A stretch of DNA of 64,000 bases. Source: a virus (taxonomy: Duplodnaviria > Caudoviricetes). How positions within the stretch are numbered: position 1 is the first letter of the stretch; each line of letters begins with the position of its first letter. The notes beneath the pieces were generated by a model that made no database searches, had not been told where the DNA came from, and saw only the letters and a list, made by a program, of their open reading frames with translations. The stretch spans positions 96,001 through 160,000 of IMG/VR virus record IMGVR_UViG_3300014205_000177; one strand, 5' to 3'. Of this stretch, positions 54,853 to 64,000 are shown piece by piece. A program made the position numbers and the translations under genes.

Positions 54853-55012
54853 TCTCAACCTCCTCTTTAATGCTTGCAAGGGTTCTTTGAAATTCTTTCT
54901 TCTCCTTGCTTCCGCATTTTGGACAAATGTTGGAGTCTGTATAAATATTTTTACATTTTATACATGTGAATGTTTTTTTATAAATTTTACCAGTAGTCTT
55001 TTGATATTCCAT
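54836..55012 (-). CDS. Small Zn-ribbon protein (58 aa, MEYQKTTGKIYKKTFTCIKC..CPKCGS)
   Basis: Hand-translated, below the ORF-track cutoff; CxxC..CPxCG; SD GAGG. Confidence 0.7.
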   Translation of the reverse strand: MEYQKTTGKIYKKTFTCIKCKNIYTDSNICPKCGSKEKKEFQRTLASIKEEVENGKHS

Positions 55013-55013
55013 T

Positions 55014-55235
55014 TTAACCTCTTGTTGACCTTAAAATTAGGTCTAAATCTTTTATCCCTATTACAAATCTAACATCAATTCCAGGGATTGTTAACAATAA
55101 TGAATCTGTAGAAATTTCGGTAGGATATGTACCATCTGCAAAAATATTATTGTCTTCTGCTTTTGATAATTCTAGTTCAGTATTTTGACAATTTCCATTC
55201 TCTATTGCAACACACTTAATATTAAATCTTACCAT
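55014..55235 (-). CDS. Hypothetical protein
   Basis: 73 aa, SD AGGAG, downstream of a promoter. Confidence 0.65.
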   Translation of the reverse strand: MVRFNIKCVAIENGNCQNTELELSKAEDNNIFADGTYPTEISTDSLLLTIPGIDVRFVIGIKDLDLILRSTRG

Positions 55236-55258
55236 AAAATCTCCTTGTTATAAAACAT

Positions 55259-55286
55259 ATTATAGCATAAATAAATAATATTTCAA
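55259..55286 (-). promoter_or_regulatory. Host sigma-70-type promoter driving the phage sigma operon
   Basis: TTGAAA-N16 (ending TGC)-TATAAT. Confidence 0.7.
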
Positions 55287-55496
55287 TTTTTTTAAATAAA
55301 ATACTTGACATTTTTATTGAACATGCTTCACTTTTATTTTTAAGGATAAACTTTAAACATTTTGTTTTATAAATCTATACAACAATGTTATAATCAAATT
55401 TTAACTACATAGAACGAACGCTATTTAATTTTTTGTTAAGATATGACTCTTTGCCCATTATTGTTGTTTTGGTGGTCTTATTTTTCTTTTATTTGA

Positions 55497-55830
55497 TTCT
55501 AGTTAATACTTTACTAGTTTATTTATCTAGTAATTATATTTACCAGTATAAATTACTTACTAGTATAATCTTCTAGTATACTTTCTTTATTGGACTATGC
55601 TATTTAGTGCGTGTATGTGATTATACTAGATAAGTATACCGCACATTACACGTTATTACTAACTAGTTAATTAATTATACTAGTTAATACACAAACTAAT
55701 ATAGTATTCACGTTAATACGTTACTAGTAATTCTCTGATGTATTAAACTAGTAAAGTATTCACGCACACACGCACGATTATAATAATATATTAATTAATT
55801 ACTAGTATTCACGTATGTGCGCACGTAAGG
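55497..55830. repeat. CTAG/ACTAGT-rich repeat region at the strand switch, candidate replication origin
   Basis: 11 CTAG copies in 55499-55805 and three AGTATTCACG (55703, 55755, 55804); non-coding. Confidence 0.6.
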
Positions 55831-55892
55831 ATAATTAATAAAAAAACTAAAACATTAATTTTAAAAAAAATTGAAAAAAAATAAAACTTTGT

Positions 55893-55920
55893 TTGTTTTT
55901 ATTTGGTTTTATGCTATAAT
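55893..55920 (+). promoter_or_regulatory. Promoter of tRNA array 1
   Basis: TTGTTT-N16 (ending TGC)-TATAAT. Confidence 0.7.
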
Positions 55921-55963
55921 ATAAAACAGAAACAAAAATAATTTAAAAATGGTGATATTAAAA

Positions 55964-56041
55964 ATGAGAACAATGCAAGATATGACAGTGGCGACAGCCA
56001 ATACCAATCCGGAGAATTCTCCAGTGTGGTACGTCTCTTAG
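55964..56041 (+). CDS. Leader peptide 1 (MRTMQDMTVATANTNPENSPVWYVS), putative attenuator of tRNA array 1
   Basis: SD GGTGA at 55951; first 18 codons all specify amino acids of array-1 tRNAs; 3' end overlaps the antiterminator strand. Confidence 0.8.
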   Translation: MRTMQDMTVATANTNPENSPVWYVS

Positions 56042-56100
56042 TCTTTGTTTTTATTTGTAAATAATGATTTAAGAGCGAACCCTAAAAAGTTCGCTTTTTT
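56032..56100 (+). terminator. Attenuator 1: antiterminator (56032-56077) overlapping intrinsic terminator (56071-56100)
   Basis: AGCGAAC-loop-GTTCGCT-TTTTT; CGTCTCTTAGTC pairs with GATTTAAGAGCG. Confidence 0.8.
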
Positions 56101-56128
56101 GTTGATTGAAAACTTAATATAATAAAAT

Positions 56129-56221
56129 GCTAGTGTGGCTGAGTGGTCTAAAGCAGCGCACCTGTAATGCGCCGAGTTCATATCAATGGCTCCGTGGGTT
56201 CAAATCCTACCACTAGCTCCA
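56129..56221 (+). tRNA. tRNA-Thr(TGT), long variable arm, C33
   Basis: GCTAGTG/CACTAGC acceptor, GCGCA-CCTGTAA-TGCGC, TTCAAAT T-loop, CCA. Confidence 0.75.
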
Positions 56222-56301
56222 GTCTTCCGGCTTCGTAAAAACGAATATAATAACATAGCAATATGTGAAGCGGATATTCCCAGCCGGTTTTATTTTAGAA
56301 T

Positions 56302-56379
56302 GGGGCAATAGCTCAGTTGGCTTAGAGCATCTCGCTTGCACCGAGAAGGTCCAGGGTTCAATTCCCTGTTGTTCCACCA
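56302..56379 (+). tRNA. tRNA-Ala(TGC)
   Basis: TCTCG-CTTGCAC-CGAGA, G3:U70, CCA. Confidence 0.95.
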
Positions 56380-56387
56380 TTTTACGT

Positions 56388-56465
56388 TGGCTAGTAGCTC
56401 AGTTGGTAGTAAGCGTTCGCCTGTTAAGCGAAAGGTCGCACGTTCGAACCGTGCCTAGCCAGCCA
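56388..56465 (+). tRNA. tRNA-Asn(GTT)
   Basis: TTCGC-CTGTTAA-GCGAA, CCA. Confidence 0.95.
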
Positions 56466-56513
56466 ATTTTATTAACAATGTGTGTTAATATTATTCTAGT
56501 TTAAAATAATTTT

Positions 56514-56599
56514 TGCAGGGATAAGTCTCGGAAGACTGGTAAGGCTCATAACCTTATGCGGAAACGCTGAGTGGGTTCGACTCTCCACCCCTGCTACCA
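56514..56599 (+). tRNA. tRNA-Met(CAT), initiator-like, atypical body
   Basis: U1xU72 mismatch, GCAGGG/CCCTGC, TAAGG-CTCATAA-CCTTA, GCG-GAAA-CGC variable arm, CCA. Confidence 0.75.
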
Positions 56600-56667
56600 T
56601 TTCTCTACCAGAGGTAGGGATATTATAAAGGGTTATCGCTGTCCCCGTCTGACGAAACAGCGAACGT

Positions 56668-56743
56668 GGCTCGTATGGATAATGGCTATCCACAAGTATC
56701 ATAAACTTGTTTAAGGTGGGTTCGATTCCCCCACGAGCTACCA
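56668..56743 (+). tRNA. tRNA-Met(CAT), elongator (Ile2 not excluded)
   Basis: CAAGT-ATCATAA-ACTTG, bulged T-stem, CCA. Confidence 0.8.
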
Positions 56744-56752
56744 ATTTAAAAC

Positions 56753-56828
56753 GGGGATGTAGCTCAATTAGGAGAGCATCGGTCTGTCGAACCGAAGGTC
56801 GTGGGGGCAGAACCCATCATCCTCGCCA
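56753..56828 (+). tRNA. tRNA-Asp(GTC)
   Basis: TCGGT-CTGTCGA-ACCGA, G73, T-loop GGCAGAA, CCA. Confidence 0.9.
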
Positions 56829-56836
56829 TTTTATAT

Positions 56837-56913
56837 GCTCGGTTAGCTCAATTGGCTAGAGCACTTGGTTTACACCCAAGTTGTTACAGATTCGAGTTCT
56901 GTACCGAGTACCA
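56837..56913 (+). tRNA. tRNA-Val(TAC)
   Basis: CTTGG-TTTACAC-CCAAG, CCA. Confidence 0.95.
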
Positions 56914-56922
56914 GTTTTATAT

Positions 56923-57012
56923 GGGGAGGTAGCTCAGAGGCAGAGCGTCGGGCTAGGTGGTGAAAACCACCGAATCTGAAGGTCGCTGGTTCGAATCCAG
57001 CCTTCCCCACCA
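56923..57012 (+). ncRNA. tRNA-like RNA with the anticodon loop replaced by a GAAA hairpin
   Basis: Canonical acceptor, D and T arms and CCA; anticodon region is CTA-GGTGGT-GAAA-ACCACC-GAA. Confidence 0.8.
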
Positions 57013-57018
57013 GTTTCG

Positions 57019-57091
57019 TTGCGAGATAATATAATTTTTAGTACCCCATTGTGGATGGGAAATGTTGGTGAAAATCCAACTCTCGCAACCA
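57019..57091 (+). tRNA. tRNA-His(GTG), degenerate
   Basis: CCCA-TTGTGGA-TGGG; 8-bp acceptor with U-1:A73; weak D arm; T-loop TGAAAAT; CCA. Confidence 0.7.
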
Positions 57092-57116
57092 TTTTTTAAA
57101 AAAATAGAAAAGTAAT

Positions 57117-57144
57117 TTGTTTTTGAAGTAAATTATGCTATATT
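57117..57144 (+). promoter_or_regulatory. Internal promoter in tRNA array 1
   Basis: TTGTTT-N16 (ending TGC)-TATATT. Confidence 0.6.
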
Positions 57145-57235
57145 TTAAAGTATAAGAAAGTTGTTGGATAATTACCAACTGAACTCTGAGGTTATGGGAA
57201 TATCAGAGAGAGATTAACAAATAACCCGTACATAT

Positions 57236-57309
57236 CAGAGCGTGAGATAATGGTAGTCGTCCTTCCTTGGAAGAAGGGGGTGGTCGTTCGAATCGACCCG
57301 CTCTGACCA
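57236..57309 (+). tRNA. tRNA-Pro(TGG)
   Basis: CCTTC-CTTGGAA-GAAGG, C1:G72, A73, CCA. Confidence 0.9.
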
Positions 57310-57359
57310 TTTTAAATTTAACCATAGTGGTTTAAATAAAAAATAACATAGGAAAAGTT

Positions 57360-57566
57360 ATGGAAGAAGATTTAATTCCTGAAATTTGGGAAAACGGAAA
57401 GGGGAGAACAAAACCCTTTGTAAAAAGTAAGAAAAACAATTATGAAGAACCCAAAAAAAGATTTGGGATAATTGGTAAGAAAAAAGTAAAAGAAAATAGA
57501 GAACTTCAAGATATAGATGAAGTAGAAGATAAAATAAGTTCTTCTATACTTAGTAAAATTAAATAA
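57360..57566 (+). CDS. Hypothetical protein within the tRNA array
   Basis: 68 aa, SD AGGA. Confidence 0.55.
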   Translation: MEEDLIPEIWENGKGRTKPFVKSKKNNYEEPKKRFGIIGKKKVKENRELQDIDEVEDKISSSILSKIK

Positions 57567-57571
57567 TATGT

Positions 57572-57647
57572 GTCCGGTTCTTCTAGTTGGACAGGATAAG
57601 GGACCTTCACTCCCTCGACACGGGTTCGAATCCCGTACCGGATACCA
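57572..57647 (+). tRNA. tRNA-Glu(TTC), C33
   Basis: AGGGA-CCTTCAC-TCCCT, CCA. Confidence 0.9.
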
Positions 57648-57650
57648 TAA

Positions 57651-57726
57651 AGCCCTGAAGTGTAACGGCTGCACACTTGTCTTTGACACAAGTAGACTTA
57701 TGGTTCAACTCCATGCAGGGCTGCCA
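57651..57726 (+). tRNA. tRNA-Gln(TTG)
   Basis: CTTGT-CTTTGAC-ACAAG, G73, CCA. Confidence 0.9.
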
Positions 57727-57734
57727 GTTTTCGA

Positions 57735-57809
57735 GTTCCCTTAATTCAGAGGAAGAAATTATCGGTCCTAACGATAAAGTCGCTGGTTCAAGTCCAGCAG
57801 GGAACGCCA
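57735..57809 (+). tRNA. tRNA-Arg(CCT)
   Basis: TATCG-GTCCTAA-CGATA, A20 in D-loop, CCA. Confidence 0.9.
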
Positions 57810-57823
57810 GTTTTGTTTTATGT

Positions 57824-57907
57824 GTGCCAGTAGCTGAGAGGATAGAGCAGTGGTTTAAATTAAATATTTAAGATTGACGTGTGTTCGATTCAATGTTTCG
57901 ATGGTAT
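57824..57907 (+). pseudogene. Degenerate tRNA (Arg-like 5' half)
   Basis: GTGCCAGTAGCTGAGAGGATAGAGCA and GTTCGATTC remain; anticodon arm, T-stem and CCA are decayed. Confidence 0.55.
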
Positions 57908-57927
57908 TATATAAAAAGGAGTTTTAT

Positions 57928-58906
57928 ATGAAAGCCATTGAAATAGATTGGAAATTAGTTCAGGAATACCATAATAATGAGCACTGCTTGAGTGATGTCA
58001 TGAAAAATTTTAAGGTTTCAAGAGCATCCATAGATACAGCGGTAAAACATGGATGCTTTGTTAAAAAATATTTTAAACAAGAACACACTGAGGAAACAAA
58101 GAAGGCAATATCTGAAAAAAGGAAAAAATGGTTGGCAGACAATCCAGATAAACATGTATGGAAAAGGAAGGGAAAATTCAAATCTGAACCATGCGAAGTA
58201 TTAAAGAAAAAAACTTGAAGAAAATGGAGTTAGTTTTTATCCAGAATTTTCACCAATAGAAAGCCATTCATTCTCTTTAGATATAGCTTTTCCAAAAGAT
58301 AAGTTTGGCATAGAAATAAATGGAAACCAGCACTATGAAAGAGACGGTAGACTAAAGGATTATTATCAGAAACGACATGATTTAATCGTTGCAGATGGTT
58401 GGGAACTATTGGAAATACCTTGTGCTATGGTTTGGAACAAGGAGTTTATTGATGGTTTAATAGAATCACTTAAAACTAAGGTCTGCGGTTTTGAGTATAA
58501 AGAACAAGTGGAAGAATATAATAAAAAGAAAAGAGAAAAGTATATTTGCCCGACTTGTGACAATAGAAAGAGCAAAAACTCGATGCTTTGTAGAAAGTGT
58601 TCTTTTAAGCCGAAAGTAAAAAAGCAAGTAGTCAGAATTTTTGTAAATAAAAACCATATGTGTCCGAATTGTAAAAACGCTAAAGATGCAAAAGCGGTTT
58701 TATGTAAGGAATGCTTTAGTTTGTCAAAGAGGAAAGTTGAAAGACCAAATAAGGAAGAGTTGGAAAAATTGGTCAAAGAGTTATCGATGACTAAGATAGG
58801 CAAGATGTTCGGAGTTAGCGACAATGCCGTAAAAAAATGGTGTAAAATTTATGAAATAGAATTAGGAGACAGACGAGGGTACTGGGCAAAGATTTATGCA
58901 AGGTGA
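57928..58906 (+). pseudogene. Free-standing homing-type endonuclease (Vsr/DUF559-like PD-(D/E)XK domain, Zn ribbons, HTH) split by a +1 frameshift at A7 (58207-58213)
   Basis: ATG 57928 with SD AAGGAG; NUMOD3-like HTEETKKAIS; +1 frame continues KLEENG..SLDIAFP..GIEINGNQHY..GWELLEIP into ORF 58409-58906. Confidence 0.8.
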
Positions 58907-58914
58907 TTTAACAT

Positions 58915-58989
58915 GGTCTCATAGCTTAACGGATAAAGTTCGTGTCTTCTAAACACGCCATTCGGGTTCAATTCCCGATGAGACCTCCA
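58915..58989 (+). tRNA. tRNA-Arg(TCT)
   Basis: CGTGT-CTTCTAA-ACACG, CCA. Confidence 0.95.
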
Positions 58990-59010
58990 ATTTTAAAAAA
59001 GGAATTTTTT

Positions 59011-59268
59011 ATGAAAAGAGCTAGACCTATTTACTCACTAGGGCAGTATTATAGAAACAGGGGCACTCATAAACGAGAAGAAGCAATAAGCGAAGACGAA
59101 GAACATAGTCCATTAACTAGAGCCAAGAGAGAATCAAATTTACCTGACTCTTGGGATACAAAAAAGATTTGCAGACCTAAGACATGGAAGAGGAGATGCA
59201 AGAAAGCAAAACAGTGGATGAAACATTTTATGACAGATTTAGAAAAGAAATTTATAAGAGGAGAATAA
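59011..59268 (+). CDS. Small basic hypothetical protein (LPDSWD..KTWK..KQW)
   Basis: Start moved to ATG 59011 (SD AAGGA) because the track start lies inside tRNA-Arg. Confidence 0.65.
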   Translation: MKRARPIYSLGQYYRNRGTHKREEAISEDEEHSPLTRAKRESNLPDSWDTKKICRPKTWKRRCKKAKQWMKHFMTDLEKKFIRGE

Positions 59269-59271
59269 ACG

Positions 59272-59376
59272 ATGAGTGGAAAAGGATGTAAGAGAAGACC
59301 TCAACAGATAAGCGAAGAAAAAATGCAAAGCAATTGGGAAAAAGCATTTAACAAAGGAAATAAAAAGAAAAAATGA
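59272..59376 (+). CDS. Small phage protein (34 aa, MSGKGCKRRPQQISEEKMQSNWEKAF...)
   Basis: SD AGGAG; stop overlaps the next ATG; GKGxxRRP..NWxxxF pattern. Confidence 0.6.
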   Translation: MSGKGCKRRPQQISEEKMQSNWEKAFNKGNKKKK

Positions 59377-59960
59377 GTGAAGTATTGGTTTTAAACAAGC
59401 TATGGCAACCAGTTAAAGTTATTAACGTATGGGATGCAATTTGCAAAGTATATCAAGATAAAGCTTCTTTTTTAGATGCTAATTATGTTATGCATAATTG
59501 GGAATCTTGGGTTATATCATGGAAAGATGCAGAAATTCATGCAAAAGATATGATACATGGTTCATCTTGTTCTATTAGAAAACCAACTGTAATTGTTTTA
59601 AAAAACTACAGTGGGTATGTTTTTAAAAAACCAAAGATGAGTAGGCGTAACATTTACTTAAGGGATGCAAACCAGTGCCAATATTGTGGTATAACATACG
59701 AAACAAAGAAACTAAATATAGACCATATTATACCTAAATCTCATGGGGGAAGAACTCAATGGACTAATGTAGTAGTTTCATGTATAAAATGTAATAGTTT
59801 TAAAGCAGATAGAACTCCTGAACAGGCAGGAATGAAACTTTTAAGAAAGCCAAAAGCTCCTACCTGGAAAGATGTTAACATGGAAGCTTTTCAAAGAAAT
59901 TATTCTAATTGGCACGGTCTGTTAAATGACATGTACTGGAATGTTACTTTAGAAAAATAG
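59373..59960 (+). CDS. HNH endonuclease (McrA-like)
   Basis: VLVLN..SRRNIYLRDANQCQYCG..NIDHIIPKSHGG..WTNVVVSCIKCN..K.DRTPEQAGM. Confidence 0.9.
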   Translation: MSEVLVLNKLWQPVKVINVWDAICKVYQDKASFLDANYVMHNWESWVISWKDAEIHAKDMIHGSSCSIRKPTVIVLKNYSGYVFKKPKMSRRNIYLRDANQCQYCGITYETKKLNIDHIIPKSHGGRTQWTNVVVSCIKCNSFKADRTPEQAGMKLLRKPKAPTWKDVNMEAFQRNYSNWHGLLNDMYWNVTLEK

Positions 59961-59970
59961 AATTATAAGA

Positions 59971-59998
59971 TTGACAAATAAAAAAAAGATGCTATACT
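59971..59998 (+). promoter_or_regulatory. Sigma-70-type promoter
   Basis: TTGACA-N16 (ending TGC)-TATACT. Confidence 0.75.
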
Positions 59999-60039
59999 TA
60001 ATAAGTGTAGCATTTTTTATATATAAATAAGGAGATAAA

Positions 60040-60426
60040 ATGAGTGAAAAAATTGTAATGGGTAAAATGTTTTCTATTGAAAATAAAAACAAAAAAACCG
60101 GTGAAAATGAAAAATACATAGCCGTTTATGTAGAAGACGAAAGCGGAAATGAAGAAACCGAAAGGTGCTTACTATTTACGGAAATAGAGCTTTCCGACAT
60201 GGAAAAAGTTGTACTTCCATTTGTTAAGAATACAATGAAAAAAGGAAGAATTTATTCTGTTATTATAGACAAAAAAGAAACAAATCTTTTAAAAGTAGAA
60301 ACAGAACGTAATGGAAATATTATTTTTAGGGTTTCTAATTCTCAACTTAAATCGGCAGAAGAAAGGGTTAAAAGAAATCCAGAAGATGTTGAAAAGAAAG
60401 ATTTTATAACTGATTTACTTGACTAA
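60040..60426 (+). CDS. Hypothetical protein
   Basis: 128 aa, SD AAGGAG. Confidence 0.7.
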   Translation: MSEKIVMGKMFSIENKNKKTGENEKYIAVYVEDESGNEETERCLLFTEIELSDMEKVVLPFVKNTMKKGRIYSVIIDKKETNLLKVETERNGNIIFRVSNSQLKSAEERVKRNPEDVEKKDFITDLLD

Positions 60427-60435
60427 CAAGGAAAT

Positions 60436-60669
60436 ATGATGAAATTAAAAATAAAATGTCCAGAATGTAAAAGGGAACATCTTGTCACTATATCAAATGA
60501 ACAACCTATTATGGAAATTAAAAAGATAAAATGTTTATCTTGTAGTATAATTATAAAATATAGAATAGGAATAAAAAAAGAAAATACCAGTGATAGTTCT
60601 TCTAAACTTTTTGATAGTATGGGAATGTTTGGAGATGTTTTTAAAAATATTATGGGGAGTAAAAGATGA
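60436..60669 (+). CDS. Zn-ribbon protein
   Basis: CPEC..CLSC. Confidence 0.65.
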   Translation: MMKLKIKCPECKREHLVTISNEQPIMEIKKIKCLSCSIIIKYRIGIKKENTSDSSSKLFDSMGMFGDVFKNIMGSKR

Positions 60670-60992
60670 TAGGTACAATAGAAGTGGTAAATAAATATAC
60701 ATATGAAGGTGATTATATAGATATAATGAGAGGAACTCCACTTGGTAATCCATATATAGTTTCTGATTCAATGAGCAGAGAACAATCAGTTTTAAATTTT
60801 TATAAATATTTCAGAAAAGAATTTTTTAAAAAAACAGATGTATATAATGCAATAATGGAGATAGTTGAAAAGGTTAAGTCTGGAGAAAATGTAAAAATTA
60901 AATGTTGTTGTAAACCAAAATTATGCCATGGCGATATTATAAAAATTGCAATAGAAAGTATTTTAGAAAAACAAATTAGAAATAATACTTGA
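60666..60992 (+). CDS. DUF4326-like protein
   Basis: I.RGTPLGNPY..R...V..F..Y..CCCKPKLCHGDII motif. Confidence 0.8.
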   Translation: MIGTIEVVNKYTYEGDYIDIMRGTPLGNPYIVSDSMSREQSVLNFYKYFRKEFFKKTDVYNAIMEIVEKVKSGENVKIKCCCKPKLCHGDIIKIAIESILEKQIRNNT

Positions 60993-61016
60993 TTTTTAAA
61001 AATATTATGCTATAGT
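60989..61016 (+). promoter_or_regulatory. Promoter of the PTH2-like operon
   Basis: TTGATT-N16 (ending TGC)-TATAGT. Confidence 0.65.
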
Positions 61017-61066
61017 TAATATTATAAAATTTCTTATTATGAGAAATTAAAAAAAAGAGGTAAAAA

Positions 61067-61141
61067 ATGATGTAGAATAATAAATCTCCATAACGTGTTT
61101 CTTTGTTTTAATGATTTTAATAATAATAATAAACAAAGGAG
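61067..61141 (+). promoter_or_regulatory. Mini-leader ATG ATG TAG (read-through MM*NNKSP*) plus SD-sequestering hairpin
   Basis: SD GAGG at 61057; TTTCTTTGTTT (61098-61108) pairs with AAACAAAGGAG (61131-61141). Confidence 0.55.
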
Positions 61142-61147
61142 AGTATA

Positions 61148-61522
61148 ATGAATACTTTAAGAAACACGAACGAAGAAGTAATAGATTTGAAGAAAGAGGA
61201 ATATAAGAAGAATATTAAAAGGATGAAGGCTAACGTTAAACTGGTGTCAAATAACATAAAAGAAATGAAAGAAGAATTAAAGACTAAGCAAAAAAAAGGT
61301 GATTATAAAAGTTGGTCTTTAATGAGTGATTTAAATTCTTATAAAAATGATGTCAGAAATACACATATAGCTTATGCTATGGCAAAAGGGAGAGTCTACC
61401 AAAAAATTGAGTCAAAAGTTAGAGATAACAATGAACCAAACTGGTGGGCAATAAAGGCAAATATAGAAAATTTCTTCGGAAAGAAATTTGAAATTGTTGA
61501 CTTCAAGGTAAACTTTCTATGA
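61148..61522 (+). CDS. Hypothetical protein (R..HIAY.M.KGR.Y..IE motif)
   Basis: 124 aa, SD AAGGAG; coupled to the next gene by ATGA overlap. Confidence 0.7.
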   Translation: MNTLRNTNEEVIDLKKEEYKKNIKRMKANVKLVSNNIKEMKEELKTKQKKGDYKSWSLMSDLNSYKNDVRNTHIAYAMAKGRVYQKIESKVRDNNEPNWWAIKANIENFFGKKFEIVDFKVNFL

Positions 61523-61821
61523 AAAAGGTATTTATAATAACCAGGAAAGACCTTGAAAATGGAGCAAGAATAGTTCAGTCTGTTCATTCATTCCATGAGT
61601 TGGCAAGAAAAAATGAAGAAATATTGAATCAGGTATATAATACAATATGTTACAAAATAGAAGACGAACTATCATTAAAAGAAGTTTCTGAGAGGATAGC
61701 AAGTAATCTAAACGAAAAAGAATATGCATGGTTCAGAGAAACAGATTACAATAATCAATTGACCTCTTTTGCAGTCTTTACAAACAAGAAAGAGCTGTTT
61801 AAAGGTTTAAGATTGGCGTAA
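61519..61821 (+). CDS. Peptidyl-tRNA hydrolase type 2 (PTH2)-like protein
   Basis: KVFIITRKDL..G..IVQSVHS..FRETD...QLTS..LFKGLRL resembles the PTH2 fold signature. Confidence 0.7.
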   Translation: MKKVFIITRKDLENGARIVQSVHSFHELARKNEEILNQVYNTICYKIEDELSLKEVSERIASNLNEKEYAWFRETDYNNQLTSFAVFTNKKELFKGLRLA

Positions 61822-61827
61822 TAAATA

Positions 61828-61855
61828 GGGAGGAGTAAATCCTCCCATTATTTTA
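61828..61855 (+). terminator. Probable terminator hairpin
   Basis: GGGAGGA-GTAAA-TCCTCCC followed by ATTATTTT. Confidence 0.55.
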
Positions 61856-61871
61856 TAAAAAATGGAGAAAA

Positions 61872-62342
61872 ATGAGCAATAAAGAAAATTATTTTTTAGA
61901 CCTAGCACTTAGAAGTGCTCATCAAGGTTCCTGTACAAGAAGAAACTACGGAGCAATTATAGTAAACGAGAAAAAGCATATAGTAGCAACTGGTTATACA
62001 GGAAATGTATCAGGAGAAGAGCACTGTAATAGTCTTGGAATTTGCTGGAGAAAAGAGAATAATATTCCAAGTGGAACCTCCTACGAACGCTGTAAATCAA
62101 TACATGCCGAACAGAATGCGTTAATTCAAGCCGGTAAAGAATCTTATGGTTCTGTAATATATATTGCCGGATATGATGTAGAAACAGGAAGGGAAATAGC
62201 TGGTATACCTTGCTTTATTTGTGCAAAACTAATTGTTAATGCTGGAATATCTTCTATTATATATAGAGATACATCTTTAGTGTTCAGGAAGGGTCCAGTT
62301 GCCCATTATCGTGAACTAGAAAGAAAAATATTTGGAAAATAA
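61872..62342 (+). CDS. dCMP/cytidine deaminase family protein
   Basis: SCTRRNYGAIIV..ATGY.G..HAEQNA..PCFIC. Confidence 0.9.
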   Translation: MSNKENYFLDLALRSAHQGSCTRRNYGAIIVNEKKHIVATGYTGNVSGEEHCNSLGICWRKENNIPSGTSYERCKSIHAEQNALIQAGKESYGSVIYIAGYDVETGREIAGIPCFICAKLIVNAGISSIIYRDTSLVFRKGPVAHYRELERKIFGK

Positions 62343-62354
62343 TAGTTTATGGTG

Positions 62355-62382
62355 TTGTTTTTTTATAAAGTAATGCTATAAT
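62355..62382 (+). promoter_or_regulatory. Promoter of tRNA array 2
   Basis: TTGTTT-N16 (ending TGC)-TATAAT. Confidence 0.7.
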
Positions 62383-62522
62383 ATAATCAACAGCCACCGA
62401 TATAGAAATATACGGTAATGTATAGCTCATCTGCCAGGTGTAGAGTGAGTTTCCGAGAATGACGATGACAAAATTCAAAGTTGTTCTCCGTTTTTAAAAA
62501 AAAATAAAAGGAATTATATTAA

Positions 62523-62594
62523 ATGATGAACGTTTTTAAAAAGATTAGTTTTGGTCGTTGGGGTTTTAAACCTCACGTCCGTCTATTCTTGTAA
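62523..62594 (+). CDS. Leader peptide 2 (MMNVFKKISFGRWGFKPHVRLFL), putative attenuator of tRNA array 2
   Basis: SD AAAGGA at 62507; codons 4-13 include a codon for each of the 8 downstream tRNAs; 3' end overlaps the antiterminator strand. Confidence 0.85.
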   Translation: MMNVFKKISFGRWGFKPHVRLFL

Positions 62595-62654
62595 CGTTTA
62601 TCGTTAGTTGTTGGAGAAGTAGGCGGACTAGAAATAGTTCGCCTTTTTGTTTTT
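62577..62654 (+). terminator. Attenuator 2: antiterminator (62577-62628) overlapping intrinsic terminator (62621-62654)
   Basis: AGGCGGACTA-GAAA-TAGTTCGCCT-TTTTGTTTTT; GTCCGTCTA pairs with TAGGCGGAC and TTCTT with GAGAA. Confidence 0.85.
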
Positions 62655-62656
62655 AT

Positions 62657-62732
62657 GGGTTGATAGCAAACGTGGTCAATGCATACCGTTGAAGCCGGTA
62701 CTACTTCGGTTCAATTCCGAATCAACCCACCA
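62657..62732 (+). tRNA. tRNA-Phe(GAA)
   Basis: TACCG-TTGAAGC-CGGTA, CCA. Confidence 0.9.
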
Positions 62733-62742
62733 GTTTATGTGA

Positions 62743-62833
62743 GCAAGGTTGTCTTAGCGGCTTGAGAAACCGACTTTTAATCGGTCAGAGGGTAATGCCT
62801 CGTAGGTGGGTTCGACTCCCACACCTTGCACCA
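62743..62833 (+). tRNA. tRNA-Lys(TTT), long variable arm
   Basis: ACCGA-CTTTTAA-TCGGT; GAGG..CCTC variable stem; CCA. Confidence 0.85.
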
Positions 62834-62844
62834 TTTTATAGTAT

Positions 62845-62929
62845 GCGTCGATGTCATAGCGGTTGTGAGGCTGACTCTTAATCAGTGAGAGAAATCTCTA
62901 GGTGGGTTCAACTCCCACTCGGCGCACCA
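62845..62929 (+). tRNA. tRNA-Lys(CTT), long variable arm
   Basis: GCTGA-CTCTTAA-TCAGT; GAGA-GAAA-TCTC variable stem; CCA. Confidence 0.85.
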
Positions 62930-62941
62930 AGTTTTTTGTGT

Positions 62942-63015
62942 ATGTCTATAGTTCAATAGTAGAACGGGAGTCTCCAAAACTCTTGACGAGGGGGCAGTAC
63001 CTTCTAGACATGCCA
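62942..63015 (+). tRNA. tRNA-Trp(CCA)
   Basis: GGAGT-CTCCAAA-ACTCT, G73, T-loop GGCAGTA, CCA. Confidence 0.9.
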
Positions 63016-63024
63016 GTTTTATAT

Positions 63025-63100
63025 GCGCTGTTAGCTCAGTTGGAAGAGCCCAAAAATACGAATTTTGAGGTCGGGGATTCGAATTCTCCACGGCGCACCA
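63025..63100 (+). tRNA. tRNA-Arg(ACG)
   Basis: CAAAA-ATACGAA-TTTTG, CCA. Confidence 0.9.
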
Positions 63101-63107
63101 TTTTCAT

Positions 63108-63183
63108 TGGCGTATCATATAACGGTCAATTATGTGAGACTGATATTCTCATCACCAAGGTTCAACTCCTTGTACGCCAACCA
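63108..63183 (+). tRNA. tRNA-Ile(GAT)
   Basis: TGAGA-CTGATAT-TCTCA, CCA. Confidence 0.9.
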
Positions 63184-63192
63184 GTTATACAT

Positions 63193-63268
63193 ATTCGGTT
63201 AGTTTAGCGGCTAGAACAATACGTTGACATCGTATAAATCATGGGTTCGATTCCCATACCGAATACCA
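63193..63268 (+). tRNA. tRNA-Val(GAC)
   Basis: ATACG-TTGACAT-CGTAT, CCA. Confidence 0.95.
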
Positions 63269-63276
63269 GTTTTCAT

Positions 63277-63350
63277 GCGAATATAGTACAGTAGCAGTAT
63301 TTGACGTTGCCAACGTTAGGACGAGGGTGCAATTCCCTCTATTCGCACCA
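63277..63350 (+). tRNA. tRNA-Gly(GCC)
   Basis: TGACG-TTGCCAA-CGTTA, A73, CCA. Confidence 0.9.
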
Positions 63351-63380
63351 TTTTTTGCAACGAAAAATATAATCTTTATG

Positions 63381-63408
63381 TTGCAAAACCAAGATATTGT
63401 GCTATACT
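63381..63408 (+). promoter_or_regulatory. Promoter of the tRNA-like ncRNA
   Basis: TTGCAA-N16 (ending TGC)-TATACT. Confidence 0.7.
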
Positions 63409-63414
63409 ATCAAT

Positions 63415-63538
63415 GGCGGTTTAGAGAAAGGTTCATCGCCCTCTAACAAGGGAGGGATTGCAGTAGATTCACCGTGGAAGAAAAGTACATCAGTGAAGGA
63501 ACCAATCCAATGTTTTTTCGATAAAACAATCGCCACCA
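63415..63538 (+). ncRNA. 124-nt RNA with tRNA-like acceptor stem, T-like arm and CCA end
   Basis: GGCGGTT/AATCGCC-A-CCA; TGTTT..TTCGAT..AAACA arm; internal stems TAGAG/CTCTA, GGATTG/CAATCC, TTCAC/GTGAA. Confidence 0.65.
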
Positions 63539-63539
63539 T

Positions 63540-63567
63540 TTGACATTTATAAAAATCATGCTATTGT
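63540..63567 (+). promoter_or_regulatory. Sigma-70-type promoter
   Basis: TTGACA-N16 (ending TGC)-TATTGT. Confidence 0.65.
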
Positions 63568-63596
63568 ACCTCAACAAACTAAAAAGGAGATATGCA

Positions 63597-63995
63597 ATGT
63601 GTATCAAAATCAAGGCGATGGAAAATGGAGTAATGATTCAAAGCAGAGAAGAATATGAAGATATAATGGATATTCTATTGGATGCAGGTCTTCGGACAGT
63701 GAGTGGAAAATATTTTGGAGAATGTGACTGGTTTAATGAAACCGGAACCGAAACAGTTATAGATTTGAGAAATCTGGAGTCTATTGCATATGGTGAATAT
63801 CAGTATTTTATTGATAATGATATCCCGGTTTGTAATTTCCAGGATTTTCTTACAGAACAGGGTTTAACACCAAACGGATGCATTAGCGGTGAACAACAGA
63901 TATTTATGCGTAGGGCAAAGTTGAAATGTCCAAAAATGAAAAAGAAAGAAATCAGAAGACTTGCAAAGGCAATCGTGAGGGAGATGAACAAATGA
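63597..63995 (+). CDS. Hypothetical protein
   Basis: Start moved to ATG 63597 (SD AAGGAG). Confidence 0.65.
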   Translation: MCIKIKAMENGVMIQSREEYEDIMDILLDAGLRTVSGKYFGECDWFNETGTETVIDLRNLESIAYGEYQYFIDNDIPVCNFQDFLTEQGLTPNGCISGEQQIFMRRAKLKCPKMKKKEIRRLAKAIVREMNK

Positions 63996-64000
63996 AAGCA

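Follow-up and report, generated by a model that had tools for sequence, protein, structure and literature searches.

Short leader ORFs listing the codons of the tRNA arrays that they precede suggest attenuation control of tRNA genes in a phage

What decides when a phage transcribes its tRNA genes? The regulation of such genes is largely unknown, and the reason for carrying them is debated, one view invoking codon compensation and the other the replacement of host tRNAs lost to degradation or cleavage. The question takes a specific form in the DNA analysed here, a stretch of 64,000 nucleotides (the window), near the end of which a short ORF and an intrinsic terminator stand between a promoter and a tRNA array. 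The whole window is contained in C2, a 177.8-kb contig of 30% GC that is binned with a 4-Mb genome of 33% GC and that encodes a large terminase, a major head protein, HNH endonucleases and ORFs of 5587 and 2449 aa. There are three tRNA arrays on C2, and ahead of each stand a leader ORF and a terminator, preceded by a common promoter motif; the leader named above is the second of these. No close cultured relative of C2 was found; the sole match of the major capsid protein was Bacillus phage G (27% identity). Comparison with 50,697 cultured phages revealed no DNA similarity to leader 2 and array 2, and only generic tRNA matches with an array-1 query. The dCMP deaminase and a 517-aa neighbouring protein had no relatives in IMG/VR; 166 genomes from the host's family gave host tRNA matches only; and a back-translated MMNVFKKI pattern, searched in IMG/VR, JGI metagenomes and GTDB genomes, picked up only chance N-termini of other proteins.

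Array 2 (62657-63350, plus strand) consists of Phe-GAA, Lys-TTT, Lys-CTT, Trp-CCA, Arg-ACG, Ile-GAT, Val-GAC and Gly-GCC, all with an encoded CCA tail. These are the eight genes named in the preliminary description; seven were called by ARAGORN and the eighth, Trp-CCA (62942-63012), by Rfam only (48.5 bits). Array 1 (56129-58989) comprises Thr, Ala, Asn, Met, Asp, Val-TAC, His, Pro, Glu, Gln, Arg-CCT and Arg-TCT. Array 3 (C2:160885-163602) lies just beyond the window end and holds 11 tRNAs: Gly-TCC, three Ser, Cys, Ile-TAT, Tyr, His and three Leu. Several tRNA identities here and in the relatives described below were read by eye, namely Tyr-GTA, Ser-TGA in contig L031 and the second Phe in contig L029. 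The phage encodes a near-complete tRNA set, and its codon usage is near the host's.

All parts of an attenuator are present ahead of array 2 in the proper order: a promoter, a putative leader ORF with a ribosome binding site, and a terminator directly 5' of the tRNAs. The predicted promoter (62355-62382, plus strand) is of the sigma-70 type, with a -35 element TTGTTT (62355-62360), a 16-nt spacer and an extended -10 element TGcTATAAT (62374-62382); transcription presumably starts near 62389. The promoter motif, ATGCTATAATATA, also heads leader 1 (55912), leader 3 (C2:160689) and a fourth site (C2:163967). The segment between 62390 and 62500 folds into a structured 5' leader, a long part that is absent from leaders 1 and 3. 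Its first hairpin persists in the related contig L029, where the stem bases differ (CCGATAT vs CAACAT, compared by eye). A hairpin followed by the U-run CGTTTTT and then by an A-run occupies approximately 62455-62495, upstream of the ORF, and is not evident in L029; it may act in pausing or weak termination, or mark the end of a small RNA. A Shine-Dalgarno-like AAGGA (62508-62512) is found 10 nt before the ATG. Neighbouring phage genes have GGAG or AGGAG sites, and the L029 leader retains AAAGGA. The putative leader ORF itself, MMNVFKKISFGRWGFKPHVRLFL, has 23 codons plus TAA (62523-62594, plus strand), exactly as first quoted. The terminator (62621-62654, plus strand) follows the stop codon by 26 nt; its 10-bp GC-rich stem-loop (62621-62644; -14.7 kcal/mol) is succeeded by the U-tract TTTTTGTTTTT. 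As stated in the preliminary description, this tract ends 2 nt before tRNA-Phe (62654 vs 62657).

The codons of leader 2 correspond to the tRNAs that follow. Fifteen of its 22 non-initiator codons are read by array-2 tRNAs (the 15 matches counted previously are borne out on this denominator), the background share in genes of the phage being 25.5%. In those genes, none of 44,695 windows of 22 codons equals this match, and eight cover all eight anticodons. The sensing codons 4-13 (62532-62561; GTT TTT AAA AAG ATT AGT TTT GGT CGT TGG) hold a codon for every array-2 anticodon (8/8), the central claim of the preliminary description, and this was seen in 0 of 46,315 gene windows of 10 codons. The analytic P for 8/8 coverage is 7.6e-7 per 10-codon window and <=1e-5 for any window in the ORF. 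A set of 609 small ORFs was collected from C2 (18-30 codons, ATG start, six frames); ORF 62523-62594 alone reaches its match to array 2. The other two frames of leader 2 match at 7/22 and 8/22 codons. Six or seven codons of the leader fall outside array 2. Each anticodon is represented by 1-3 scattered codons, and the stretches of repeated cognate codons that characterise trp and his leaders are absent; hence a mild shortage may give only short pauses.

The pattern recurs in the two other cassettes of C2. The sister cassette 1 (55912-56098, plus strand) is made up of the promoter, ORF 55964-56041 (MRTMQDMTVATANTNPENSPVWYVS) and a terminator (56071-56098), and stands ahead of array 1; cassette 3, headed by the promoter motif at C2:160689, has a 24-codon ORF, MNKLLSSHSLSLSSYIGCEIGLLW, and a terminator ahead of array 3. 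The leader-3 codons cover all 11 tRNAs of that array. The leader-by-array matches were 17/2/3, 3/15/4 and 3/3/16 (chi-square P = 2e-9), each leader fitting its own array; the correct assignment gives 48 matches and the five wrong permutations 9-24.

The same comparison bears on the nature of the signal. The attenuator might respond to amino-acid starvation, that is, to uncharged tRNA in general, as opposed to the abundance or integrity of particular tRNAs. Classical attenuators do sense charging, and the leaders match their arrays at the amino-acid level too (41/44 for one leader of Caulobacter phage phiCbK, its block 2). Against this, where different arrays hold different isoacceptors for one amino acid (Val, Arg, Gly, Ile), 13 of 15 leader codons are those of the own array, 7.1 being expected (P = 0.001): AGA in leader 1 as opposed to CGT in leader 2, and likewise GTG vs GTT/GTC, ATT vs ATA, and GGT vs GGA. 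The match thus goes beyond the amino acid to the anticodon. In addition, an extra tRNA does not relieve an amino-acid shortage, so that a feedback triggered by starvation would be purposeless. We therefore regard starvation as an unlikely signal.

The fold of the leader transcript is consistent with a switch. In the minimum free energy fold of 62500-62656 (z = -6.65), a long hairpin (62522-62605), also present in the centroid fold, precedes the terminator. It pairs the start-codon region with bases just past the stop, while its inner stems hold the segment 62577-62586. The latter, GTCCGTCTA(T), spans codons 19-22 and is the candidate 5' strand of an antiterminator: as proposed in the preliminary description, it can pair with the terminator arm, here over 10 bp with 62619-62628 (-16.6 kcal/mol, a value matched by 0.1% of random segments). 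The long hairpin would thus correspond to the 1:2 protector of classical attenuators. Here our results depart from the preliminary description, in which no 1:2 protector helix was seen and the untranslated leader was accordingly taken to be ON by default. Since the hairpin sequesters the antiterminator strand, the predicted default without translation is termination (OFF). A comparable long hairpin appears in leaders 1 and 3 and in the relatives, L031 among them.

The effect of a ribosome was modelled by forcing a footprint of assumed size to be single-stranded in a transcript ended before the terminator 3' arm. With the A site at codons 1-14, the terminator 5' arm was predicted to pair upstream with a probability of about 0.8; this fell to 0.62 at codon 15 and to about 0.27 from codon 16 to the stop, compared with 0.32 in the absence of a ribosome. 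Leaders 1 and 3 behaved similarly. In this model the matched codons thus lie where a stalled ribosome would free the antiterminator, as originally suggested. Full-length equilibrium folds were less permissive: the terminator was dominant at most ribosome positions, falling only at codons 7-9 in leader 2 and hardly at all in leaders 1 and 3. The preliminary description had held that dominance of the terminator regardless of ribosome position would argue against attenuation. That dominance is largely seen in full-length folds, while the truncated transcripts switch; the proposed condition is too strict, as the terminator of the classical trp attenuator is also dominant at equilibrium and the device works kinetically. 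The equilibrium folds do imply that the switch must rely on kinetic trapping.

Antiterminator pairing was also found in seven other cassettes, with duplex energies of -8.5, -12.7, -12.0, -13.0, -16.2, -6.6 and -17.6 kcal/mol; leader 1 (-8.5) and the L043 cassette (-6.6) are the weak ones. In all eight cassettes the best partner strand for the terminator 5' arm is located within the last ORF codons or at their end, and in six of them <=3.5% of random segments pair as well with that arm. The gap from stop codon to terminator measures 23-31 nt in the eight, and 32 nt in the second leader of a 429-kb phage described below.

Taken together, the order of the parts, the codon match and the predicted folds make it likely, with a probability of roughly 0.7, that array 2 is governed by trp-type, ribosome-mediated transcription attenuation sensing the supply of the array's own tRNAs. 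The phage would then probably make these tRNAs only during slow decoding of the matching codons. Here we infer the translation of the leader ORF, the kinetics of the switch and its physiological trigger. Transcription would begin at the leader-2 promoter, and a ribosome would load on the leader ORF while RNA polymerase advances. Quick decoding of the sensing window (codons 1 to approximately 15) would bring the ribosome to the last codons or the stop, masking 62577-62586; the terminator hairpin 62621-62644 would then form and transcription would end 2 nt short of tRNA-Phe. Should any one of the eight tRNA species be scarce, uncharged or cleaved, the ribosome would stall on the cognate codon and keep the protector hairpin open, leaving 62577-62586 to pair with the terminator 5' arm and allowing read-through into the array. 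Without translation, the protector would form, the terminator would prevail and the array would stay OFF. Each of the three cassettes in this genome would thus act as an OR-gate sensor of demand and, through its product, would feed back negatively on its own set of tRNAs. Since the tRNA product would relieve the stall, a cassette would constitute a self-limiting supply loop for one block of tRNAs. A point against this reading is that coupling of transcription and translation is loose in some Firmicutes, and the host here is a low-GC bacterium.

Relatives of the locus were recovered. Two short Logan contigs, L029 and L030 (runs SRR24750904 and SRR24750923), encode a dCMP deaminase homologue (65% identical) and the same upstream genes, followed by the promoter motif and a homologue of leader 2, MMNVFKKISVGRWGFIKAQVRLFL; this is the one close homologue of leader 2 found. 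Relative to leader 2, it carries a single in-frame insertion of 3 nt, which keeps the frame, and seven substitutions, four of which are synonymous; at the peptide level the differences are F10V, an additional Ile, P to A and H to Q. Frame conservation had been named in advance as a prediction of attenuation, and it held for this homologue. The ORF is 90% identical, as opposed to approximately 50% in the spacer that follows it. The only G-U pair of the 9-bp antiterminator core is a G-C in L029, and one pair of the inner protector stem shows a compensatory change from G-C to C-G (GGT to GGC with CCT to GCT). The tRNA of L029/L030 starts 9-10 nt past the U-tract, and the array is truncated at the contig end. 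A second relative, L031, in which the neighbouring VWA gene is 51% identical, carries a counterpart of leader 3, MKTSLSHYGYSYSSLSLGGGFPVV, of very different sequence and the same architecture. Its array is without Cys, Ile-TAT and Leu-TAA, and its leader is without the corresponding codons.

These comparisons bear on a different explanation, in which the mini-ORFs would be genes for functional micro-proteins, each with a terminator of its own, and other promoters would drive the arrays. Small phage proteins are common, and candidate promoters do occur in array 1 (a TATAAT 6 nt before tRNA-Thr and a promoter-like motif inside the array at 57137). Nonetheless, a promoter would not fit into the 12 nt between the leader-2 terminator stem and tRNA-Phe; the peptides share no sequence relationship and yet follow array content; and amino-acid changes are tolerated where RNA pairing persists. 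A micro-protein function is highly improbable on these grounds.

The attenuation reading gained further support from unrelated phages. L032, a 115-kb T4-like JGI contig, has two cassettes. In one, MRNFKQQYYFIQKLHGGAC stands ahead of Tyr, Ile-TAT, Phe, Phe and additional tRNAs, and every codon from 4 to 14 (11 in a row) is a match; in the other, L032B, the array following MKTVLKQQKQKQQQIMGVCVLK reads Gln, Leu, Gln, Lys, Lys, Gln, Gln, and this is the only case with runs of cognate codons (Gln/Lys). G166, a 429-kb IMG/VR phage, has two as well: MKAISVHIIHIWEHLLEEVNINIM is followed by His, Glu, Val-TAC, Trp and Leu-TAG, all five of which it covers (5/5), and MKTLSTYPLGQAQTLGTPPITG by Ala, Leu-TAA, Pro, Tyr, Gln, Gly, Thr, Gly, with 15/21 codons matched, 8/8 coverage and P = 1e-5. 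In Caulobacter phage phiCbK, the block-2 leader matches at 31/44 codons, covers 13/13 tRNAs and specifies their amino acids at 41/44 positions (P = 7e-12); the block-3 leader covers 11/11 tRNAs, and neither leader matches the other blocks. The phiCbK leaders were missed by the automatic pipeline, one ORF exceeding its 45-codon limit, and were found by eye and then scored. The cassettes of different lineages show no sequence similarity, their leaders vary from 19 to 45 codons, and the hosts range from a GC-rich alphaproteobacterium to low-GC bacteria. We propose that they form a class of codon-matched cassettes in which the leader covers nearly all anticodons of its own array, in preference to other arrays, its last codons would supply the antiterminator, and 23-32 nt separate stop codon and terminator (nine cassettes measured); by its sequence, leader 2 fits this class.

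When eight leaders were pooled (the three of this genome, one of L031, two of L032 and two of G166, with phiCbK left out), 111/175 codons matched in frame, as opposed to 41/175 and 44/175 out of frame. This confinement to the ORF frame is difficult to reconcile with an untranslated ORF, in which case a leaky constitutive terminator or a processing hairpin within a structured RNA would set the level of expression and the codon match would be incidental. That explanation can appeal to the strong structure of the leaders (z -4 to -6.7), which buries the start codon once fully folded. The match recurs, however, in unrelated sequences from four phage lineages, the frame survives an indel in L029, Shine-Dalgarno-like sites stand ahead of most leaders, and the chance P is <=1e-5 per leader. 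An untranslated leader is accordingly very unlikely. The pipeline does not manufacture hits: applied unchanged to 119 unselected IMG/VR tRNA loci (67 with at least three tRNAs), it returned null-like scores only and no significant hit. Bacillus phage Mater has no such cassette either; together, these results indicate that the element is restricted to certain lineages and is not general to phage tRNA clusters.

A last alternative dispenses with the ribosome altogether: the leader RNA could bind the tRNAs directly by codon-anticodon pairing, in the manner of a T-box. The display of one codon per tRNA in the leader would suit such a mechanism, and T-box riboswitches resemble the phage cassettes in sensing tRNA status through the choice between terminator and antiterminator. 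They differ from leader 2 in that they bind one uncharged tRNA directly, using neither an ORF nor a ribosome. A search of 55000-64000 yielded no match to the T-box specifier loop or conserved sequence (Rfam RF00230), nor to any other Rfam cis-regulator, at E <= 1; moreover, eight to thirteen tRNAs cannot each be given a specifier scaffold in approximately 70 nt. The start codon, Shine-Dalgarno sequence, stop codon and fixed spacing from stop to terminator all point to the ribosome as the reader, and direct binding is scarcely credible.

With the ribosome as the presumptive reader, the closest known systems are the enterobacterial attenuators of ilvGMEDA (Ile/Leu/Val) and thr (Thr/Ile) and the leaders trpL, hisL, pheL and leuL. 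Like leader 2, these combine a promoter, a short leader ORF and 1:2, 2:3 and 3:4 helices; the position of the ribosome selects the structure, and several codon types can each trigger read-through. The differences are four. Enterobacterial attenuators control enzymes, whereas the phage cassettes would control tRNAs. Their leaders contain codon runs, whereas the phage panel comprises 8-13 isoacceptors with 1-3 scattered codons each. In the phage leader, the 1:2 hairpin also buries the start codon. Finally, the tRNA produced by a phage cassette would directly relieve the stall, a one-step feedback. The leader peptide of Escherichia coli pheST (pheM) responds to the supply of charged tRNA and regulates part of the decoding apparatus; there, the product is a synthetase, a single amino acid is concerned and the system is bacterial, whereas tRNA arrays of a phage are at issue here. 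phiCbK blocks 2 and 3, the T4-like contig and the 429-kb phage share the layout and the apparent logic of leader 2. Full-text searches, with much of the subscription literature outside their scope, turned up no account of leader-peptide control of tRNA genes.

Should the attenuation reading be correct, leader codons that list the phage's own tRNAs imply that decoding speed is measured codon by codon and that tRNAs are supplied on demand. Classical attenuation would be extended from amino-acid metabolism to the tRNA pool, and the cassettes would represent natural, compact sensors of individual tRNA levels. The same layout in a cultured phage, phiCbK, makes the idea directly testable. As to purpose, a near-full tRNA set together with host-like codon usage fits replacement of a failing host pool better than codon compensation. 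The trigger may be the decay of the pool during infection or a tRNA-cleaving defence. A broader proposal is that the cassettes are modular sensors of tRNA demand serving counter-defence: a host anticodon nuclease, or decay of the host pool induced by the phage, would remove any one tRNA, the ribosome would stall and the replacing array would be switched on, the codon panels co-evolving with the arrays in many unrelated lineages. We put this forward tentatively, as a possibility with somewhat less than even odds.

The codon lists also provide independent, sequence-based evidence for the use of oddly shaped phage tRNAs. Several genes of the arrays depart from the usual form. tRNA-Trp-CCA (62942-63012) and tRNA-Asp-GTC (56753-56825; Rfam 54.5 bits) have the non-canonical T-loops GGCAGTA and GGCAGAA, respectively, and were missed by ARAGORN. 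The two tRNA-Lys genes (62743-62833 and 62845-62929) measure 91 and 85 nt and have extra paired arms, which is unusual for tRNA-Lys. The tRNA at 56923-57012 has a 15-nt hairpin insertion in the anticodon loop, and ARAGORN reads it either as '???' with a 2-base anticodon or as Arg-ACG with the insert taken as an intron. tRNA-Leu-TAA of array 3 (L022:2252-2528 = C2:162252-162528) has a 191-nt intron according to ARAGORN. A suppressor-type tRNA with anticodon CTA is encoded at C2:18254-18329, outside the window; the long late genes of C2 are nonetheless open in the standard code. Suppressor-type tRNAs with anticodons TTA and CTA are found in the 429-kb phage as well (G166, approximately 373448-373637).

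Other genes are interspersed with the tRNAs. Arrays 1 and 3 are broken by ORFs with HNH or zinc-ribbon Pfam hits (57874-58906; L022:2607-3521), and ORFs inserted within or beside the tRNA arrays were seen by eye in L030 and L031. A Lys/Glu-rich ORF of 68 aa (57360-57566) lies between tRNA-Pro and tRNA-Glu of array 1; the motif at 57137, a weaker copy of the common promoter motif, is upstream of it. Between divergent gene blocks, the AT-rich intergenic segment 55440-55850 contains many short repeats with ACTAGT and CACG and may be an origin or a regulatory region. Downstream of the fourth copy of the promoter motif (C2:163967) come a tRNA-like element (Rfam tRNA, 53.9 bits, model positions 5-66) and the 517-aa ORF, for which Pfam gave no hit (L022:3967-6098 = C2:163967-166098); a similar tRNA-like element is present at L031:4053-4126. 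A Y-RNA/Ro-like module was suspected, but the reading of the 517-aa ORF, past the window end, as a Ro60/TROVE protein drew no support from Pfam. Finally, in three phage lineages with no other relationship, a VWA-domain gene adjoins tRNA arrays under putative attenuator control (from 63926-64000 onward in the window, L002:3087-3731; L031:825-1412; L032:10001-10720; L043:6001-6531); searches with the VWA gene led to the other cassette examples.
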